NCBI GenBank assembly: GCA_013166835.1
Contig: JABLTI010000015.1
Coordinates: 1 to 64,000 of the forward strand
Origin: Promethearchaeati archaeon
GTDB taxonomy: Archaea > Asgardarchaeota > Heimdallarchaeia > JABLTI01
Direction: 5' to 3'
DNA: 64,000 nt
The notes beneath the pieces were generated by a model. It was not told the origin of the DNA. It did not search any database and saw nothing but the letters and a program-made list of their open reading frames with translations. Position numbers and translations under genes: made by a program. This document shows, one piece after another, positions 14,500 to 27,952 of this stretch; position 1 is the stretch's first letter, and the number at the start of each line of letters is the position of its first letter.

Positions 14500-17445
14500 A
14501 TGAAACGTGGAAAAATCCTCTCGATTTGTCTATTATCACTATTTATTTTCTCAGCTGCAATACCATTTGTATTATCAAAAGCGGATTTTACAAATGTTAC
14601 AGTTCCGGAAACGCTAATCTATAAAAAAACAACTTATGATTTAAATGGCGATAAAATTGATGATAAACTATTGAGAGATGTCAAAAGGAGTAGAAGTATG
14701 TTTATGGAAGCTATCTTGCTCTACGAACATGAGATATCTTCAAGAGATAGAAATCGATTAGATCAATTAGGCGTTATACATTCTGAAGAAACTTGGGATC
14801 TAGGAAGAAGAGTGGTAATCTCTGCAAATAAAGATAGACTTGACTTGATTGCTGGTCTACCAGGTGTTTCTTTAGTAACTACAGCTGAATTAAGATATAT
14901 TATGATTGCCATAAAGGGTGAGGATTTCTCCGATTTATCTGCTTTAGAAAAATATGACGGATCGGAAATTTTTTGGGGTGTTGGTTGCGCATTAGTTCCT
15001 CATTATTCTGGTGTTGAAACTGATATAGCGCGATTAGGAGATTATACTGTAATTTCTGATACAACAGATATCAAACTATATCCAGACGTAATAAAGGAAG
15101 ATAATATTATTTTAAACCCAGATTCACAAATATCAGCTGATGCAATTAATGCTTCAGTAATGTGGTCCTTAGGTTATGATGGGACTGGAATAAAAGTAGG
15201 TGTAATAGATACTGGGATTAATGCTGTTCATCCTGCTTTTGAAGGCAGAGTAGATGATGCTTTAAGTTTTGTTTCAACAATTTATGGTTATGATTATAAT
15301 GATCCAACAACAACAGATCCAAATGGTCATGGTTCTCATACTTCTGGAATTGTTGGTGCAGGTGATACAGCTGTTACCAGAGTTGGGATAGCTAAAAATT
15401 GTAGTATTTATCATGCAAAAATTGGTTCACCAGCTCCTTTACCATCAATAATAGCTGGCCTTGATTGGTTAGTAAACACAAGTAATGTAGATGTAATTAA
15501 TTTTAGTTTTGGTGGCGGTGATGGTGTAGGTCTTGATCCGCTTGAAATTGCATTTTACAACGCAGTTCATATTAAAGGAGTGGTCTGTGCAACTTCTGCA
15601 GGTAATGAGGGTAATCAAGGGTTCTATACAGTTGGTTCCCCAGCTACAGATGATATAATTCATGTTGGTGGGGTTGTTGCTACTGGTGGACCTCCAAGTA
15701 TTATATCTTATAGTTCACGTGGTCCTACTGCTGATGATCATATGAAACCCGATGTATTAGCACCAGGTTATTTGATTGATTCATGTGATAATATAGGTAC
15801 AGGTTATGTTACAATGAGTGGTACTTCTATGGCTTCACCTCACGTTGCAGGAGCAGCAGCGTTACTTATTGATGCTTGTATAGCAAATGGTTATGCAGTA
15901 AATCCTGGTTTGGTAAAAGCTGCTTTGATGAAGACCGCTACACCACTTGGTTCTGTTCACATATTAACTCAAGCTAGAGGTGTTATCAACGTTGGTGCTG
16001 CTTGGCATTATATTAAAACTGCTATCACTGATAATGGGATCAAAGTCGTTGGTGCTTGTAATCCAGTACAACAACCACTACCTTGGTGGTCAACAATGTT
16101 ACAAGGGCAAGTAACTGAACAATACTTAACTTGTATTTCTGCTCACAAAACTGATCTTTCTTTAGAATTGAGTGGAGATGTAGCATCTTTTGTCACAATT
16201 GGATCATTCAGTAATCAATGGACAAATGTTGTGAAGGTTACCTATGACGTTCCAATTGACGCAACTATAGGATCTTATACAGGGACATTGACTTTCAAAT
16301 ATTTGACAAACGTACTTGATACTGTAGATATTGTTCTGACGGTAACTGAGAGTAATGGTCACAATATGCTTCTAAACTTTAAAACTACAGATTATAGTAT
16401 TGATCACATGTATGGTCAATATGCGATTTTCACTCAAGATATCTTAACGAATGATTATGTAATAAGCGAACAACTTGCTGATTTAGATTCCGGAATAATA
16501 GAAAATTATGATTGTATCTGGTTACCAGATCCATTTGATTTAGTTTATCCGAATTCTTATGAAGGAGATTACAATATTGTTGAGACTTATAATGAATGGA
16601 CAGCGAGTGAAAAAACAGCTTTAACTAACTATGTAGCATTAGGGGGTTCTGTTTTCCTTTGTTTCCTTGGTTATAGTGAAACAGATGTTGATGGGTGGGG
16701 ACCAGTTTTACATGGTACAAATGTCTCTGCTATCAATGACTGGACTAACCAATATGGAATAAATATTAGCGATTCCTTATGGACAGGTTCTTATCCAATT
16801 ACAGTGGATACAACAGAATCACATGCATTATCAATTGGAGTTGAAAGCATTGATCATTGGGGTACTTCAATTGAAGTATCAGGTAATGCTGTTCAAATTA
16901 CAGAATTAACTCCTGGTTCACAATATGCTACTTGCGCTACTTACCAACATGAAAGCGGTGGAAGAGTTATTGTCTTGACTACAAACTTCTGTCTAGATAC
17001 TTCTGGCTATATAAACGATTATAATACTGGTACACAAAACGATCAATTTGGTCAAAATCTAGTTAGATGGGCAACAGCTCACTCAAGGATGTCTAGAAAC
17101 ACTATATCATTTACTGACCAATATGCAATATTACGCTACGATTTTATTTCAGGAACTGAAACTTTTGGTGGATATGTTATAGACCCAGATGATAATCAAG
17201 AGGATTTGGTTTGGACAGAAATTGCTCCTGATACTTGGGAAGTAAATTACGAAATGACTAGCGAAGGAATTTATGAATTCTATCCCGAGTGTGGTGAAGT
17301 TGGTTTAGATGATTACGACTACATTAAATACCTAAACGGAGAACTCCTCTCATCAACAAATGGAATTTCAATTATCGTTGTAGCAATAATCTCTGGTTTT
17401 GGTTTAGCTGCATGGACACTTATTCAAAAATTCAGACGAAAATAG
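14500..17445 (+). CDS. secreted, membrane-anchored S8 subtilisin-like serine protease
   Basis: Signal peptide; catalytic triad VIDTG, HGSH and GTSMASP; C-terminal TM plus basic tail. Confidence 0.93.
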   Translation: MKRGKILSICLLSLFIFSAAIPFVLSKADFTNVTVPETLIYKKTTYDLNGDKIDDKLLRDVKRSRSMFMEAILLYEHEISSRDRNRLDQLGVIHSEETWDLGRRVVISANKDRLDLIAGLPGVSLVTTAELRYIMIAIKGEDFSDLSALEKYDGSEIFWGVGCALVPHYSGVETDIARLGDYTVISDTTDIKLYPDVIKEDNIILNPDSQISADAINASVMWSLGYDGTGIKVGVIDTGINAVHPAFEGRVDDALSFVSTIYGYDYNDPTTTDPNGHGSHTSGIVGAGDTAVTRVGIAKNCSIYHAKIGSPAPLPSIIAGLDWLVNTSNVDVINFSFGGGDGVGLDPLEIAFYNAVHIKGVVCATSAGNEGNQGFYTVGSPATDDIIHVGGVVATGGPPSIISYSSRGPTADDHMKPDVLAPGYLIDSCDNIGTGYVTMSGTSMASPHVAGAAALLIDACIANGYAVNPGLVKAALMKTATPLGSVHILTQARGVINVGAAWHYIKTAITDNGIKVVGACNPVQQPLPWWSTMLQGQVTEQYLTCISAHKTDLSLELSGDVASFVTIGSFSNQWTNVVKVTYDVPIDATIGSYTGTLTFKYLTNVLDTVDIVLTVTESNGHNMLLNFKTTDYSIDHMYGQYAIFTQDILTNDYVISEQLADLDSGIIENYDCIWLPDPFDLVYPNSYEGDYNIVETYNEWTASEKTALTNYVALGGSVFLCFLGYSETDVDGWGPVLHGTNVSAINDWTNQYGINISDSLWTGSYPITVDTTESHALSIGVESIDHWGTSIEVSGNAVQITELTPGSQYATCATYQHESGGRVIVLTTNFCLDTSGYINDYNTGTQNDQFGQNLVRWATAHSRMSRNTISFTDQYAILRYDFISGTETFGGYVIDPDDNQEDLVWTEIAPDTWEVNYEMTSEGIYEFYPECGEVGLDDYDYIKYLNGELLSSTNGISIIVVAIISGFGLAAWTLIQKFRRK

Positions 17446-17644: not shown

Positions 17645-18007
17645 ATGTCATTTGAAAACGAAGCTGCACGGTTACAGAAAAATGGGGTTATTGGAGCGCT
17701 TGCTTTAGTTGGAGCTGATGGAAAGGTCTATTGGACAACACAGAACTGGCAAGTTGATGGGGTAACAATAATTGAAGCATGGACTAAAAAAGCTCCCTGG
17801 ATAGTGGTTCAAGGAGTCAAATATTCTACAATTGACATTACAAGTAGTCGTTTGGTTTGTACCAATGTTCAGCAACAAGGTCATATAGTAATCGCAAAAA
17901 CTCCTTTCTGGCAAGGATTTATCATGGCTTGGTGTTCTCCAGCGAATCCTGTACGAATGGCCTATGTTGACATAGCAAAATTAGCTGGTACAGTTAAACC
18001 AGGGTAG
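17645..18007 (+). CDS. profilin (Asgard type)
   Basis: 120 aa; ALVGADGKVYW, IVVQGVKYS, RLVCTN...GHIVIAK and a C-terminal helix match the profilin fold and Asgard profilins. Confidence 0.85.
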   Translation: MSFENEAARLQKNGVIGALALVGADGKVYWTTQNWQVDGVTIIEAWTKKAPWIVVQGVKYSTIDITSSRLVCTNVQQQGHIVIAKTPFWQGFIMAWCSPANPVRMAYVDIAKLAGTVKPG

Positions 18008-18081
18008 TATTATTTGAAATGATTCTCTCACTGAGAATCTTAAAATCTCTTTATTCTTATTAAACAGAATTAGTTGTAAGG

Positions 18082-21000
18082 TTAGTCCGAGAACATATTT
18101 TGAGCTGGGGCATCATGAGTTTTAGTAAAAATCGTTCCCTTTTCTACTACTTGAATAGTTGAGAGATCAAAACCAGTCACATTCATTCTTGAGAGGAGTT
18201 TGCCATAATCAGCAAGTGATTGAACTTTTCTACCAACAATTAATGTTTTCAATATGTTGTGCGAACATAATGAATCCTTGAGATCAACTCCTATTGTTCC
18301 CATAACTGATTGAGAAATATCAGACATTATCTCTTTTTCTACAGTTGCATTTGAAAATAGAACCACAATCTCTCTTGAGAGTTTTTCGCTAACTAATATA
18401 ACTGGGTGATCAGATAAAGATAATCCAAGACAGGTTCCTATATGTCTTCCACTTAAAGTTCTAACTCTTAAACACTCTAAAGGAAATATTTCTGATGGAC
18501 GGAATGTCCGGGAAGAATTTCTAAGTATAACTTTATTTTTAGTTATTTTATCAATGGATCCTCCTGATATAAATATCCTAAATGAATTCAAAATCTCATT
18601 AGGTAAGATGGGGAATCCTCGATTTAAAGAGTAATTAATTAATGTTTTAGGCTTTAATGCTTCGCCTTCAGGAATCTTCAATTGTTTAGCAATTAAGTAC
18701 TTTACCAGCCACATTTTCTCTTTTGTCTTTTCTTCTGTAATATTTAGTCTATTTACTAAGTAATCGATAAGAGTATTATCTGGTTCTTCTTTATCTAAAA
18801 GAAGTAGTTTACCCATTAATGGATGTAAAACAGCTGCAATGACTTTTCCAATTTTAACTCCATGACTCAAATAACAGTATTTTCCTACTGGAGATTTATC
18901 TGCTGTTCCGATTTGCCCATCCCATGGTGCAGTTCTATATGGCTGAGAAGCTAGTATGCTATCTGGACTACAGATAATAGATCCTCTTTTGATTCGAATT
19001 TTATCTACTGGTATGATACCTATTATTTCAGGAACTGGTCTTACCTCACCTTTTGGAAAGTTAACATTTCTGAAGTTTGCAAATTCTTGCAGTCTTGTTA
19101 TATGTAATGCTACATCTTTTTGAACTTGAAGTGATTCCATAACTTCTCGAATAACATAGTTTTTGCGTTTTTCTGCTGATTCAGTTAATTCCTCTGTTAT
19201 CCAGAGGGGTTTTATTTGATCAAATATTTTATCAATTATACTTTGATTTGCTTCTGTTTCTGTTACTAATATGAAACCAAGACGATTATTTCCATAAACG
19301 ACAACTTCTTGTAGATATCCTAAGAATTCTCTTTTGGTATCTTCGAGTAAATTGAAAAGTGCTTTACCAGATAATTTCCACGCTTCTGATGCTGCTTCTA
19401 ACAGTTTAGGAGATACCATTGTTTCCTTCGTTGGTTTAATTAATTGTTCTTCTTCTTTTTCTGGAATTTTTATTTCTTCTTCTACTGCTGCTTCTTGTTG
19501 AACAATTTCGGGAATCGGTTCTGTTTCAGATATAATTTCGTCTGATACAGACAATTCAGGTGGAGGAGGTGGTGGTGGTAGAGTTTGTTGGGGGGGTGGT
19601 GGTGGGGGAAGAACATCTGGTTCTGTAGGAATGGATGGTATTTCAATTACTTGAGCTTCCTTTATCTCAGGAATAATCTCTATATTATCTGTATCTATTT
19701 TAATAAGCTCTTCAGGAGCCATTGGTTCAATTTCAGAAACAATAGTTAGATCTTTAGTTAGTTCAGATAAGCTACCTGAATCATCAATTTGATCTTCAGC
19801 GGAACCGCGACTTGTATCTACTGTTTTTTTGAGATCAGATGATAAACTACTAAACTGAGCTTTTGTTTTGGGAGTTTCTTTCTCGACTTCAACTGATTTT
19901 ACTGTGCTTGTTTCTACTTCGTCTTCTCCGATTAATTTTGATAATAAACCCTCAAAAGATTGAAAGATAATTTGTTCTGTTAAATTATTTAATCTTGCTT
20001 TAGAACCATTTATTTCAAAAGGTAAAGTAAAGTCTTCCATCCCAATAATTTCAAGTTCAACTACTGGTTCATAGACTGGTTGAGGAGTCTCGGGAATTAT
20101 TAATGAATCCGACGGTTGGACCATTTCTTCATCAACAAGCTCAAACTCCTCAATTAAAGAGGAATCTGTTGTGTCTATTAAGAAATAACTGATAGGATCA
20201 TCTATCTGTCTCTCAAATTCTATTGTTTCAATTAAGGAATCAATCGCTTTTTTCTTCTCAACTAATTCTTTAGTTTCTTCCGGAGCAATTTCCAAACCAA
20301 ATTGTTCTGGCATAAATAAATCATGAGAATCATCAATCACTAGTATGTCTTTCTGTAAGAGGTTTAAACAGTTGCAATAATCCTTAATATCTTCTGATAG
20401 AATTTTGATATAATCTTTTAATTCATTAACTGATTGTTGAAAATCTAGTAATGATTTAAAATCAGGCAAACCATTTCTAGCAGTTGAAGTACTAATTTCT
20501 AACTGAGTTGTTTTCACAGTGGCCAACAATTCAGCAATTGCTTTGCGATATTCTTTACGTATCTCAATTTCATGAGTGAGTTCACGTGAGAGTTGCTTCA
20601 ATTCAGCTTCGGTTTCCACTCCATGTCCGTAAGAAAACTTTAGATAATTCTCCAGTGTAAATTTCACTAATTCACCCTTTGATGGGTTTCTCTTCAGATA
20701 TTTTTCTCGAGCACCAAATCTATTTTGTGCTAACCGAAGATCAAATTCAAGTGTTTCAATTTTTATGTTTGCAGTATCCGGATTCACTTTTTTCTCAGCA
20801 ATCAGAATATTTAATTTCTGCATGTTGTGATTTAGATTTCTTATGTTTCTTGCAAGTTCTTGAATTTCTCTTCTTATTTTAAGATGTCTAAAGAATGTTC
20901 GAGGGACATTAAATGTTGGTAATAAATCCTCAATAGAGATTTTGCCAACCAAACTATTTGCACTCAAAGGAATTTCTCTTGCATTTATTGCATCCTTTAA

Positions 21001-21147
21001 TTCATCATCAGTTGGAGCACTTACTGCGAATAGTTGTTTTTCTAGGATTTGCATTTTATTTTCAAAAATTTCAGAATCAATTTCCTCAAGAGCGTATTGC
21101 TTTTCAATTTCCATTATCTCTTTAAGGATATCAATTCTAGTTCGCAT
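18082..21147 (-). CDS. large hypothetical protein: coiled coil, acidic linker with polyproline, three PRC-barrel-like repeats
   Basis: N-terminal heptad-like region; PPPPPPQQTLPPPPPPPE; three C-terminal repeats. Confidence 0.8.
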   Translation of the reverse strand: MRTRIDILKEIMEIEKQYALEEIDSEIFENKMQILEKQLFAVSAPTDDELKDAINAREIPLSANSLVGKISIEDLLPTFNVPRTFFRHLKIRREIQELARNIRNLNHNMQKLNILIAEKKVNPDTANIKIETLEFDLRLAQNRFGAREKYLKRNPSKGELVKFTLENYLKFSYGHGVETEAELKQLSRELTHEIEIRKEYRKAIAELLATVKTTQLEISTSTARNGLPDFKSLLDFQQSVNELKDYIKILSEDIKDYCNCLNLLQKDILVIDDSHDLFMPEQFGLEIAPEETKELVEKKKAIDSLIETIEFERQIDDPISYFLIDTTDSSLIEEFELVDEEMVQPSDSLIIPETPQPVYEPVVELEIIGMEDFTLPFEINGSKARLNNLTEQIIFQSFEGLLSKLIGEDEVETSTVKSVEVEKETPKTKAQFSSLSSDLKKTVDTSRGSAEDQIDDSGSLSELTKDLTIVSEIEPMAPEELIKIDTDNIEIIPEIKEAQVIEIPSIPTEPDVLPPPPPPQQTLPPPPPPPELSVSDEIISETEPIPEIVQQEAAVEEEIKIPEKEEEQLIKPTKETMVSPKLLEAASEAWKLSGKALFNLLEDTKREFLGYLQEVVVYGNNRLGFILVTETEANQSIIDKIFDQIKPLWITEELTESAEKRKNYVIREVMESLQVQKDVALHITRLQEFANFRNVNFPKGEVRPVPEIIGIIPVDKIRIKRGSIICSPDSILASQPYRTAPWDGQIGTADKSPVGKYCYLSHGVKIGKVIAAVLHPLMGKLLLLDKEEPDNTLIDYLVNRLNITEEKTKEKMWLVKYLIAKQLKIPEGEALKPKTLINYSLNRGFPILPNEILNSFRIFISGGSIDKITKNKVILRNSSRTFRPSEIFPLECLRVRTLSGRHIGTCLGLSLSDHPVILVSEKLSREIVVLFSNATVEKEIMSDISQSVMGTIGVDLKDSLCSHNILKTLIVGRKVQSLADYGKLLSRMNVTGFDLSTIQVVEKGTIFTKTHDAPAQNMFSD

Positions 21148-25751: not shown

Positions 25752-26051
25752 CTATTTGACTAATTTGTTTAATTCTGTTTGAATTATAAAGTATCCATAA
25801 TATACAAAGCACAAGAGAAAAACTATCATAGCTTCTTGTTCTTTATATTTCACGATTCGATGCCATTCTTCTGTATATTTATATATGTAGTAAATATTAA
25901 CACCGGGTATAAATATAAACCAAATTGTTGGTAGTTCTGCACCCAATTCTGTTAATTCTTTACTTGTTTCATAAAGCCAGTATAACATATAAAGTCCGCA
26001 TGATATGATCATGAAGACGATTGTCATCATTGGATCTCTTTCTTTAACCAT
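25752..26051 (-). CDS. DUF4234-like small membrane protein
   Basis: ERDP...ISCGLYMLYWLY...IIQTELNKL. Confidence 0.75.
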   Translation of the reverse strand: MVKERDPMMTIVFMIISCGLYMLYWLYETSKELTELGAELPTIWFIFIPGVNIYYIYKYTEEWHRIVKYKEQEAMIVFLLCFVYYGYFIIQTELNKLVK

Positions 26052-26097
26052 TTTGTATCAACTACCTTGATATAGTGAAAAATTACAACTCTATTAC

Positions 26098-26118
26098 TTA
26101 TTAAAATTTAGGAACGAG
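26098..26118 (-). promoter_or_regulatory. conserved promoter-like block (TATA-like), duplicated at 26511-26531
   Basis: TTATTAAAATTTAGGAACGAG is identical upstream of both DUF4234 paralogues. Confidence 0.6.
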
Positions 26119-26161
26119 AAAATTCATACAATTATAAAAAAAGAATATATAATTAGCCTTA

Positions 26162-26464
26162 TTAGGCTAATTTGTTTAATTCACTTTGTATTACATAGAT
26201 TCCAATTGGGAAGACGAGCCACATTAATAGAAATGCAATTAATGCACTTGTATCAGATTTTGTTACTTTTTCCCAACCTTCAGAGTACTTGTAGAACCAG
26301 AAAATAGTTCCAACATAAGGTATGAGCCACATCCAAGCAGTTGGAATACCAGCTCCTTTTTCATTCATTTCATTTTTGGTGGATACACACCAGAAGAGCC
26401 ATGAAATACCTAAAGTACATAGACCCCATATAATTACCATTACTGGATTTCTTTCTTTAACCAT
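26162..26464 (-). CDS. DUF4234-like small membrane protein
   Basis: ERNP...CTLGISWLFW...IQSELNKLA; tandem paralogue. Confidence 0.78.
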   Translation of the reverse strand: MVKERNPVMVIIWGLCTLGISWLFWCVSTKNEMNEKGAGIPTAWMWLIPYVGTIFWFYKYSEGWEKVTKSDTSALIAFLLMWLVFPIGIYVIQSELNKLA

Positions 26465-26651
26465 TTTGTATCAACTACCTTGATATTGCAGAAAATAAAC
26501 ATTAACTAGTTTATTAAAATTTAGGAACGAGCATTGAAAATGATAAATGATGAAATTTAACAAAAACTCCATTAGGAAAAGATTGATAAATAATAAATTA
26601 CAAAAATAAAGAATGTTGACGTTATAGTCAATATTAATAGAGGCGAAAAAA

Positions 26652-26846
26652 ATGGCAGGAGAAACAGACAAAATCATAATGATTTTAGTAACATTTTTCT
26701 TGGGTTATTTAGGAATTCATAGATTCATAAAGGGACATTGGCTATCAGGCATTGTTTACTTATGCACTGGTGGATTATTAACTATCGGTGTTTGGATAGA
26801 CCTTATTTGGATTATTATGGATAAGCCATTAATGTGGCAAAGTTAA
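26652..26846 (+). CDS. TM2-domain protein
   Basis: FLGYLGIHRFIKGHWLSGIVYLCTGGLLTIGVWIDL is a canonical TM2 motif. Confidence 0.85.
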   Translation: MAGETDKIIMILVTFFLGYLGIHRFIKGHWLSGIVYLCTGGLLTIGVWIDLIWIIMDKPLMWQS

Positions 26847-27038
26847 TTCAATAACCCAATTTCAATGAAATTATTTTCATTGATCTCTCTTTTTTTTTCT
26901 AAAAATGATCAGAAATTTCTTATGTTATTATTTTTGATAACTATTTGTTTGTTTTGCAATTTCTAAAGAGAAAAAATTATATTTAAAATAACTAATACAA
27001 AATTTGATTATAATTTTGTAATATATAAGGAAATTAAA

Positions 27039-27233
27039 ATGGCAAGTGATAGCAAAATAGTAGATTTTCTCCTAGCCTTCTTTCTTGGCTTTGGAGTCTT
27101 TAGATTCATAAAAGGGTATAAGACATCAGCGATAGTCAAACTAATTTTATGGCTAGTTGGTGTTAGCTTTATCTGGTGGGTAATTGACTGGGTTTTTGTC
27201 TTACTTGACAAAAAACTACTCTGGCCAGAATAA
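27039..27233 (+). CDS. TM2-like protein
   Basis: FLGFGVFRFIKGY...WWVIDW; paralogue of the previous gene. Confidence 0.75.
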   Translation: MASDSKIVDFLLAFFLGFGVFRFIKGYKTSAIVKLILWLVGVSFIWWVIDWVFVLLDKKLLWPE

Positions 27234-27514
27234 AAATCATTGAATTTTTTTCAATGATATTCTTTTTTTTTCCCCTTTTTCTAATGCAAGTAATCGCTGT
27301 GATTTTTTCTGTTGTTATTGTAAATTTAAATTACAATCAGCATTAAATATTAATTATCAAAAGATAAAAGTCATATCAATGAATGATGTAAAAATAAATA
27401 AGAAAAGTATATATTTAAATAAAGTTAATTTCGTTATTGGTTGGTTTTTGAATAGATATATTAAAAGAAGATACTGTTTATTAAAAAATAGGATAACTAT
27501 AAGGAGAAAAAAAA

Positions 27515-27952
27515 ATGTCTCAAAATGTTCAAGGAACAAGATCATATTTCTTGTGGGTATTTCTAGGAATTATTACATTAGGTATATGTTTTATTGTATA
27601 CAATTTGTTGAATTTCTTGGATTTGGATGAGCACCATAACAGATATGCAACAAAAGAAAATGCTCCTTCAACGAATTCACAAGCTTGGTTAATGGTTCTA
27701 CTGTGTATTTTTGTACCAGTAGTAGGAGGATTAATTGCTTTATACATCAAATATTCAAAACTACATGATCACTTAGCAGTATATCAAGGAGCCCCAAATA
27801 TCCCTGATGGTTTGAGTATTGTATTGATAAGCTTGTTATTGTCTTTGTTAAGTGCTGGAATTGTATTCTTCTATTTTGAATGGAAATGGCAACATGTATT
27901 TAATGAGCACAATCGCTGGCATGCTCGCCAAGAAACACAAGGAACAAGATAA
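27515..27952 (+). CDS. DUF4234-like membrane protein
   Basis: RSYFLWVFLGIITLGIC...WQHVFNEH. Confidence 0.7.
   Translation: MSQNVQGTRSYFLWVFLGIITLGICFIVYNLLNFLDLDEHHNRYATKENAPSTNSQAWLMVLLCIFVPVVGGLIALYIKYSKLHDHLAVYQGAPNIPDGLSIVLISLLLSLLSAGIVFFYFEWKWQHVFNEHNRWHARQETQGTR

Follow-up and report, generated by a model that had tools for sequence, protein, structure and literature searches.

The profilin-scaffold locus

The window analysed here, 64,000 nucleotides of contig JABLTI010000015.1 from assembly GCA_013166835.1 of a Promethearchaeati archaeon (the source genome, 85% complete), carries a profilin gene that faces the gene for an unannotated protein of 1021 amino acids (aa), here called the scaffold. 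Our analysis indicates that this protein is a new form of PRC-barrel scaffold with a real and old link to profilin. An initial annotation had portrayed it as a native profilin ligand, functionally like a proto-formin or VASP, which we now regard as a minority case. The features of the locus, in window positions, are as follows.

17645-18007, + strand: Asgard profilin, 120 aa, without N-terminal extension; from homology to solved profilins
18008-18081: 74-bp gap between the convergent stop codons
18082-21147, - strand: unannotated scaffold open reading frame (ORF), 1021 aa; hairpin bundle, acidic linker and three modelled PRC barrels with helical inserts
20344-21147, - strand: N-terminal helical-hairpin / antiparallel coiled-coil bundle, aa 1-268; from alignment and model, homologous across the linked families
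19426-20310, - strand: linker, aa 280-574, acidic and variable in sequence apart from conserved islands near aa 361-405
19822-19866, - strand: short amphipathic linker motif, aa 428-442, here ending in LKKT; from the family alignment
19558-19608, - strand: polyproline tract, Pro6 + Pro7, aa 514-530, with mixed Pro codons
18961-19386, - strand: repeat 1, aa 588-729, a barrel that carries a helical insert; called PRC through homology to repeats 2 and 3
18490-18918, - strand: repeat 2, aa 744-886, probable PRC barrel with helical insert; from VIA matches and conservation
18121-18489, - strand: repeat 3, aa 887-1009, probable PRC barrel with helical insert; from VIA matches

The ORF positions agree with the convergent arrangement first described. 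The linker is indeed acidic (71 D+E versus 22 K+R), and its Pro6 (aa 514-519) and Pro7 (aa 524-530) are the sole runs of at least four prolines in any frame of the window. The profilin is a clear homologue of the solved Asgard profilins (5ZZA, 5ZZB/5YED, 6YRR, 7PBH). Five Asgard profilin chains match it at E <= 1.3e-8, with phmmer values of 6e-22 for 5ZZA chain P (aa 1-115), 1.9e-11 for 7PBH and 2.2e-9 for 6YRR, and Pfam Profilin (PF00235) recognises it at E = 6.6e-4 and 20.2 bits, below the curated cut-off of 25. It is the sole profilin match in the source genome, which also encodes a bona fide actin (E = 2e-134); the cognate actin gene is at G000:C176:46553-47665, G000 being the source genome.

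We modelled the C-terminal part of the scaffold (aa 575-1021) from 51 sequences and obtained three beta-barrels, each broken by a helical insert of ~70 residues (predicted local distance difference test, pLDDT, 88.4; predicted template modelling score, pTM, 0.85). In a VIA comparison with 48,161 solved chains, the nine best rows are all PRC-family domains (Z 7.6-5.7), and the first unrelated row follows at 4.8. Repeat 3 matches Archaeoglobus fulgidus PRC/CdpB (8ONW) with Z 7.6, a root-mean-square deviation (rmsd) of 3.2 and 62 aligned residues, as well as RimM (3H9N, Z 7.3); repeat 2 matches the RimM C-terminal domain (7CQ1, Z 7.5) and MTH1859 (1PM3, Z 7.3). The ESM Atlas lead for the scaffold is again PRC (0.86-0.87), and the four best Foldseek rows for the C-terminal model are CdpB1/B2 (E 0.02-0.14); no Foldseek match reached E <= 0.001 for either the C-terminal or the N-terminal model. 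The PRC family PF05239 gave no match, and no Pfam family came above its cut-off, for the scaffold, 13 C-terminal regions or 32 distant homologues; a PDB sequence search with the C-terminal profile returned one chance row. The three repeats are homologous to one another (hhalign 94-96%, E 8e-9 to 9e-8). The PRC label that the initial annotation gave them has the modelled fold behind it and no Pfam support. We assign the PRC beta-barrel fold to repeats 2 and 3 with moderate confidence in the modelled structure, and to repeat 1 by profile homology. Nowhere is the scaffold more conserved than in the insert of repeat 2 (aa 821-860); structurally, the helical insert gave only weak matches (VIA Z 4.8 or less).

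The N-terminal region (aa 1-279), modelled as a single chain, consists of antiparallel helical hairpins (pLDDT 80.9, pTM 0.77). It had been described as a coiled coil that oligomerises; the model is instead a monomeric antiparallel hairpin bundle, so that oligomerisation through it is putative. Its VIA list is made up of tied generic hairpins at Z 8-10, among them ESCRT-I Vps23, CdvA, CHMP4B, Mrs2 and SMC, and because of these ties we assigned the bundle neither to ESCRT nor to CdvA. The CdvA family PF18822 matched one of 19 N-terminal domains, at E 0.03. In the linker, the motif at aa 428-442 keeps its hydrophobic pattern in all 30 aligned family members, while the letters of LKKT vary; it is probably a binding motif. 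Its reading as a WH2 motif is unsupported, given the variable LKKT letters and the absence of a Pfam WH2 match.

Old linkage of the scaffold and profilin genes

A profile search found the scaffold family in 81 of 400 Asgard genomes. In the family of the source genome (f1) it is present in all 11 further genomes, in one of them via a paralogue only. It occurs in 30/31 genomes of f2, 21/22 of f3, 2/2 of f7, 1/1 of f15, 5/5 of f21 and 6/7 of f24, in two genomes of f9 and one of f22, and as one weak match in f29. The source genome itself holds a 533-aa paralogue (L078:9593-11194, - strand, equal to G000:C123:41592-43193), apparently with two barrels and without a proline run, which does not lie near profilin and is matched in most f1 genomes.

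The scaffold adjoins profilin in five Asgard families (f1, f2, f9, f22 and f15), in three orientations and above background. In f1 a convergent profilin gene is found in 11 of 11 genomes having a scaffold orthologue and at 10 metagenome loci. Here a 20-kb block is kept in order (TPR, hydrolase, subtilase, cytidylyltransferase, thioredoxin, TrmB), and because the block is conserved as a whole we did not take f1 synteny as evidence of linkage. In f2 the two genes are divergent and directly adjacent in 20 of 30 genomes (8 from gene maps, 12 from coordinates), with two genes between them in one more; in seven genomes they lie on separate contigs (the one read has another gene upstream), and two gave no profilin match. 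The arrangement is tandem in f9 (2/2) and convergent in f22 and f15 (1/1 each), and the Wukongarchaeum record L084 also carries both genes. Genes for DUF167, DNA ligase and an IFT52-GIFT protein surround the pair in f2, f9 and f22. This neighbourhood lies on another contig (C138) of the source genome, and in f1 only the profilin-scaffold pair has left it; the pair was therefore relocated together.

We estimated the background from 400-kb samples of one f2, one f22 and one f9 genome (G016, G105 and G084), taking adjacent gene pairs with both genes matched in the source genome. Seventy-one of 313 pairs are adjacent there too, 66 of them co-directional in both genomes. Only two of 104 non-co-directional pairs are kept, and three of the 313 are kept in another orientation. 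Conserved pairs are undercounted by best-hit mapping to a genome that is 85% complete, and the linked families share one ancestral adjacency and are therefore not independent trials. These data show that the scaffold gene and profilin were neighbours early on, in an ancestor of several Asgard families, and remained so through reorientations and one relocation, which makes the linkage older than could be known from the window.

Two further genes are of note. The IFT52-GIFT-domain protein of the source genome (L171:2890-3885, + strand) has a Pro6 linker and a C-terminal coiled-coil-like segment, and in f2, f9 and f22 homologues of it are found within a few genes of profilin. A profilin homologue of 37% identity (L085:5001-5321) is found on a 44-kb bacterium-labelled contig, by misbinning or transfer, with no scaffold gene within 5 kb.

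Proline runs and the putative polyproline site of profilin

Only five of 3232 called genes in the source genome encode a run of at least five prolines, and the single run of seven, the longest in the genome, is that of the scaffold. Runs of 5-11 prolines occur in 21 of 31 f1 scaffold clusters, eight of the 21 being near-copies of the query, and runs of at least five in 5/9 full-length orthologues from genomes. On the cluster tree, run presence requires five changes and is spread over most branches, with shifting positions. The codons of the runs differ in their third base (45 A, 15 T, 11 C and 6 G); we judged an origin by DNA slippage unlikely on this ground, and together with the shifting positions the mixed codons indicate that the runs are not a plain DNA repeat. 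The remaining 10 of the 31 close clusters have no run of five. No stretch of more than three prolines is found in 46 further representatives or in 20 homologues taken from other loci, the 12 profilin-linked ones outside f1 with a readable linker included; a Pro4 occurs close to the N-terminus of one f3 homologue. The tract is thus conserved among orthologues in part, within f1, and fails as the tie between the two genes, since linkage exists in families without runs. Because these linked homologues lack them, the linkage predates the runs and does not depend on them; the runs appear to be a later addition in one family.

We compared the putative polyproline site of the profilin with those of characterised profilins. 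The human site comprises W3, Y6, W31, H133 and Y139 (10.1101/2021.08.06.455371). This eukaryote-type groove is not intact in the window profilin: only the W31 equivalent (W30, mapped via 7PBH) is clearly kept, G115 takes the place of human H133, and the chain is too short to include Y139. The N-terminal helix lies outside the alignment, and F3 may stand in for one more groove residue. Its G26, Y29, W30 and I81 correspond in a HMMER alignment to G49, Y52, W53 and I106 of the polyproline-binding Asgard profilin 6YRR, whose Y52 and W53 shift on polyproline binding (PMC8410842). Unlike 6YRR, the window profilin lacks the N-terminal extension, and its C-terminus is devoid of aromatic residues, leaving F147 without a counterpart. 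The Y/L-W strand is common to it and the two reported polyproline binders. Truncated 6YRR profilin binds polyproline with a dissociation constant (KD) of 0.3 mM and Thor profilin with a KD of 250-500 uM, while PMC8410842, recounting a 2018 Nature paper, reports that the Loki, Odin and Heimdall LC2 profilins do not bind. The Odin and Loki structures lack a tryptophan at the W30 column, and the weakly binding Asgard profilins likewise keep one of the five human polyproline-site aromatics. From these residues, weak polyproline binding by the window profilin is plausible; tight binding would not be expected.

One explanation of the runs is that they are a physiological profilin ligand in f1, concentrating profilin-actin on an oligomeric scaffold in the manner of FH1 or VASP. 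Their wide and shifting distribution in mixed codons, the rank of the scaffold run in the genome, and the retention of Y29/W30 argue for this explanation, as does a run-lacking clade (with genomes G008 and G010) in which profilin carries Y29H at 4/4 loci, against Y at nine other loci of the genus. The Y29H change is a single evolutionary event, however, and genome G005 retains Y29 with only a Pro3 run. The clusters without Pro5, the lack of runs in every linked homologue outside f1 and the single clearly kept groove residue also count against docking, no actin-binding domain was matched in the scaffold with Pfam, and polyproline motifs are reported to be widespread among Asgard archaea (PMC8410842). 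A complex prediction of aa 505-1021 with profilin scored 0.00 in two runs (mark 0.32); controls failed to fold as well, so this is evidence neither way. Taken together, we consider profilin docking by the runs quite unlikely.

We also compared the scaffold with eukaryotic actin regulators. The scaffold shares LPPPPP-type runs in a disordered linker with formins (FH1 + FH2). It differs from them in having no FH2 match (Pfam, E <= 0.1) and a barrel triplet after the runs, and many of its orthologues have no runs; a genome-wide FH2 search was silent, as were its controls, and is uninformative. With Ena/VASP and WASP/WAVE it has in common a proline-rich linker, a helical oligomerisation-like region and one LKKT-like motif. 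Unlike in Ena/VASP, there is no EVH1/WH1 or WH2 Pfam match, the LKKT-like motif precedes the prolines, and barrels follow. As none of FH2, EVH1 and WH2 was matched, the proto-formin/VASP label is unsupported.

A competing candidate profilin ligand, judged by its sequence features, is encoded on contig C138 (G000:C138:44234-44986, equal to L171:14234-14986, + strand), ~7 kb from the DUF167/ligase block. This 250-aa protein has a coiled-coil-like start, then a Pro6 region and two helices, the first with LKKA after it, and lastly an acidic stretch, a layout that we take to be more VASP/WASP-like than that of the scaffold. It has no Pfam match, and weak matches to it in 15/151 Asgard genomes cover mostly the coil and low-complexity parts. 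Another proline-rich protein, of 316 aa (L172:6319-7269, - strand, contig G000:C140), combines an N-terminal hydrophobic segment and a helical hairpin with a very long proline-rich region, after which comes a C-terminal helix; it gave no Pfam match above cut-off.

It is a matter of dispute if Asgard profilins have polyproline partners: those of Loki and Odin and one from Heimdall are reported as non-binders, and two others as weak binders of a VASP peptide (PMC8410842). The present locus supplies a cognate profilin, a peptide and natural variants with and without runs, and so makes the question directly testable. If docking were true, the locus would hold the first profilin-polyproline pair native to Asgard archaea, FH1-like recruitment would have been invented independently, and the clade in which the runs were lost and profilin became Y29H would serve as a natural control. 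The significance is lowered by the fact that the runs are lineage-limited and that profilin docking is a proposal from sequence.

Proposed role of the scaffold

The best structural match of the scaffold is the PRC barrel of CdpB1/CdpB2 (PF05239; 8ONW, 8QZO), which also occurs in tandem copies, and the host has FtsZ-family and SepF genes. Unlike CdpB1/CdpB2, the scaffold has three barrels with ~70-aa inserts, fused to a 270-aa helical bundle and a long linker; it is missed by PF05239 and occurs in f3, a family without a SepF match. CdvA (9S9G) is matched by both modelled halves (barrel Z 4.8, hairpins Z 9.3), the hairpin match having an rmsd of 17.5 and tying with many unrelated hairpins. CdvA consists of an N-terminal single PRC domain, a three-helix coiled coil and, at its C-terminus, a peptide that binds ESCRT-III, whereas the scaffold has the same two kinds of part, helical hairpins and PRC barrels, in the reverse order, with three barrels and no cdvB/cdvC neighbourhood. 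CdvA filaments use PRC-to-coiled-coil contacts (PMC12818579), and PRC proteins act in haloarchaeal division (10.1101/2023.03.28.534520; PMC11188069). Besides its FtsZ-family, SepF and actin genes the source genome encodes Snf7. SepF was found in 11/11 genomes of f1 and 28/31 of f2, and a Pfam-detectable plain PRC protein in 0/31 of f2.

We tentatively favour, at somewhat less than an even chance, a CdvA/CdpB-like role, in which the scaffold would be a non-enzymatic, self-associating protein of a cortical or division structure, in a process probably shared with profilin. By analogy with CdvA and CdpB1/B2, it would self-associate via PRC and hairpin contacts and hold partners at this structure, with the conserved insert and the short linker motifs as presumed binding sites. 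The old linkage to profilin hints at a shared cytoskeletal role. The proline runs would be a spacer, or at most a weak and dispensable profilin dock, and the scaffold would not be an actin polymerase.

Several observations weigh against this role. VIA Z-scores below 8 may reflect a common arrangement, and repeat 1 has no direct PRC match. PRC barrels also serve in ribosome maturation and photosynthesis (10.1101/2023.03.28.534520). In f3 the scaffold is kept (21/22) with SepF matches in 0/22 genomes, and no division gene was recognised in the gene neighbourhoods read. Most Asgard families gave no match to the scaffold, including f4 (12 genomes) and f14 (0/135, with only two candidates per genome scored), which means not found rather than shown to be absent. 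The pair is apart in f3 (linked in 0/17 genomes that have both genes, with no profilin within 1.5 kb at 20/20 loci), and the scaffold is unlinked from profilin in f24 (0/3) and f7 (0/1 readable). Hodarchaeales are among the lineages in which the family is unlinked. In f21 the scaffold is present in 5/5 genomes (75-83% complete) with actin and no profilin match; in these genomes (G101, G111, G309, G310 and G311) actin was found in all five, and profilin went unmatched with either profile. Another non-operon pair of the neighbourhood (DUF167 and its neighbour, convergent) is also kept between f1 and f2. Finally, the partner, polymer and location of the scaffold are proposals drawn by analogy.

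A different explanation would have the two genes next to each other by inheritance and unrelated in function, the scaffold being a PRC adaptor elsewhere, for example in RNA or ribosome assembly like RimM, and the runs a neutral low-complexity linker. The f1 block conserves unrelated genes in order, the older neighbourhood is unusually stable (besides the DUF167 pair, DUF167 stays beside the scaffold in f3), in no case are profilin and scaffold consistently co-directional, the family survives where profilin is unlinked or undetected, and RimM is level with CdpB (Z 7.5 and 7.3 versus 7.6). On the other hand, non-operon adjacency was rarely kept in the sampled background (5/313), and the pair has outlasted two reorientations and a relocation, even if the lineages share one adjacency. 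We regard inherited neighbourhood as unlikely, though to be taken seriously.

A folded part of the scaffold, either a helical insert or a PRC surface, might instead bind profilin or actin directly and so keep the genes together. The linkage tracks the folded domains in families without proline runs, and the repeat-2 insert is the best-conserved surface; this insert is, however, no less conserved in f3, which keeps the two genes apart, and in f21, in which profilin went unmatched. Direct binding of this kind seems very unlikely to us. To return to the favoured CdvA/CdpB-like role, its extension to a division-type scaffold that works with profilin-actin, and in which f1 gained proline runs docking the neighbouring profilin, has a low probability.

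In the library searched we found no paper joining Asgard, profilin and PRC, and no title or abstract opening that describes the family, although the supplementary tables of 10.1101/2023.03.28.534520 may list the family, and a term look-up in excerpts of PMC12993045, PMC12962969, PMC13716822, PMC13734099 and PMC12050087 returned no description of it. Gelsolins and profilins have been described as the main regulators of Asgard actin (PMC13716822). As a large and unannotated family of PRC-barrel proteins in the lineages near eukaryotes, kept beside profilin, the scaffold family is a candidate link from archaeal division scaffolds to the actin cytoskeleton.

A promoter/terminator scan built on bacterial patterns returned 14 promoter-like sites against 15.2 by chance, from which we concluded nothing. 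At window positions 25752-27952 are three small ORFs, hydrophobic and alike in layout (99, 100 and 145 aa), the first two of which resemble tandem paralogues. Directly upstream of profilin, in all f1, lies the gene for a site-1-protease-like subtilase, which in the window occupies 14500-17445 on the + strand. Its 981-aa product has a signal-like start, a C-terminal hydrophobic anchor and a site-1-protease-like layout, with a weak match to the fourth domain of MBTPS1 (E 4.6e-4, below cut-off).

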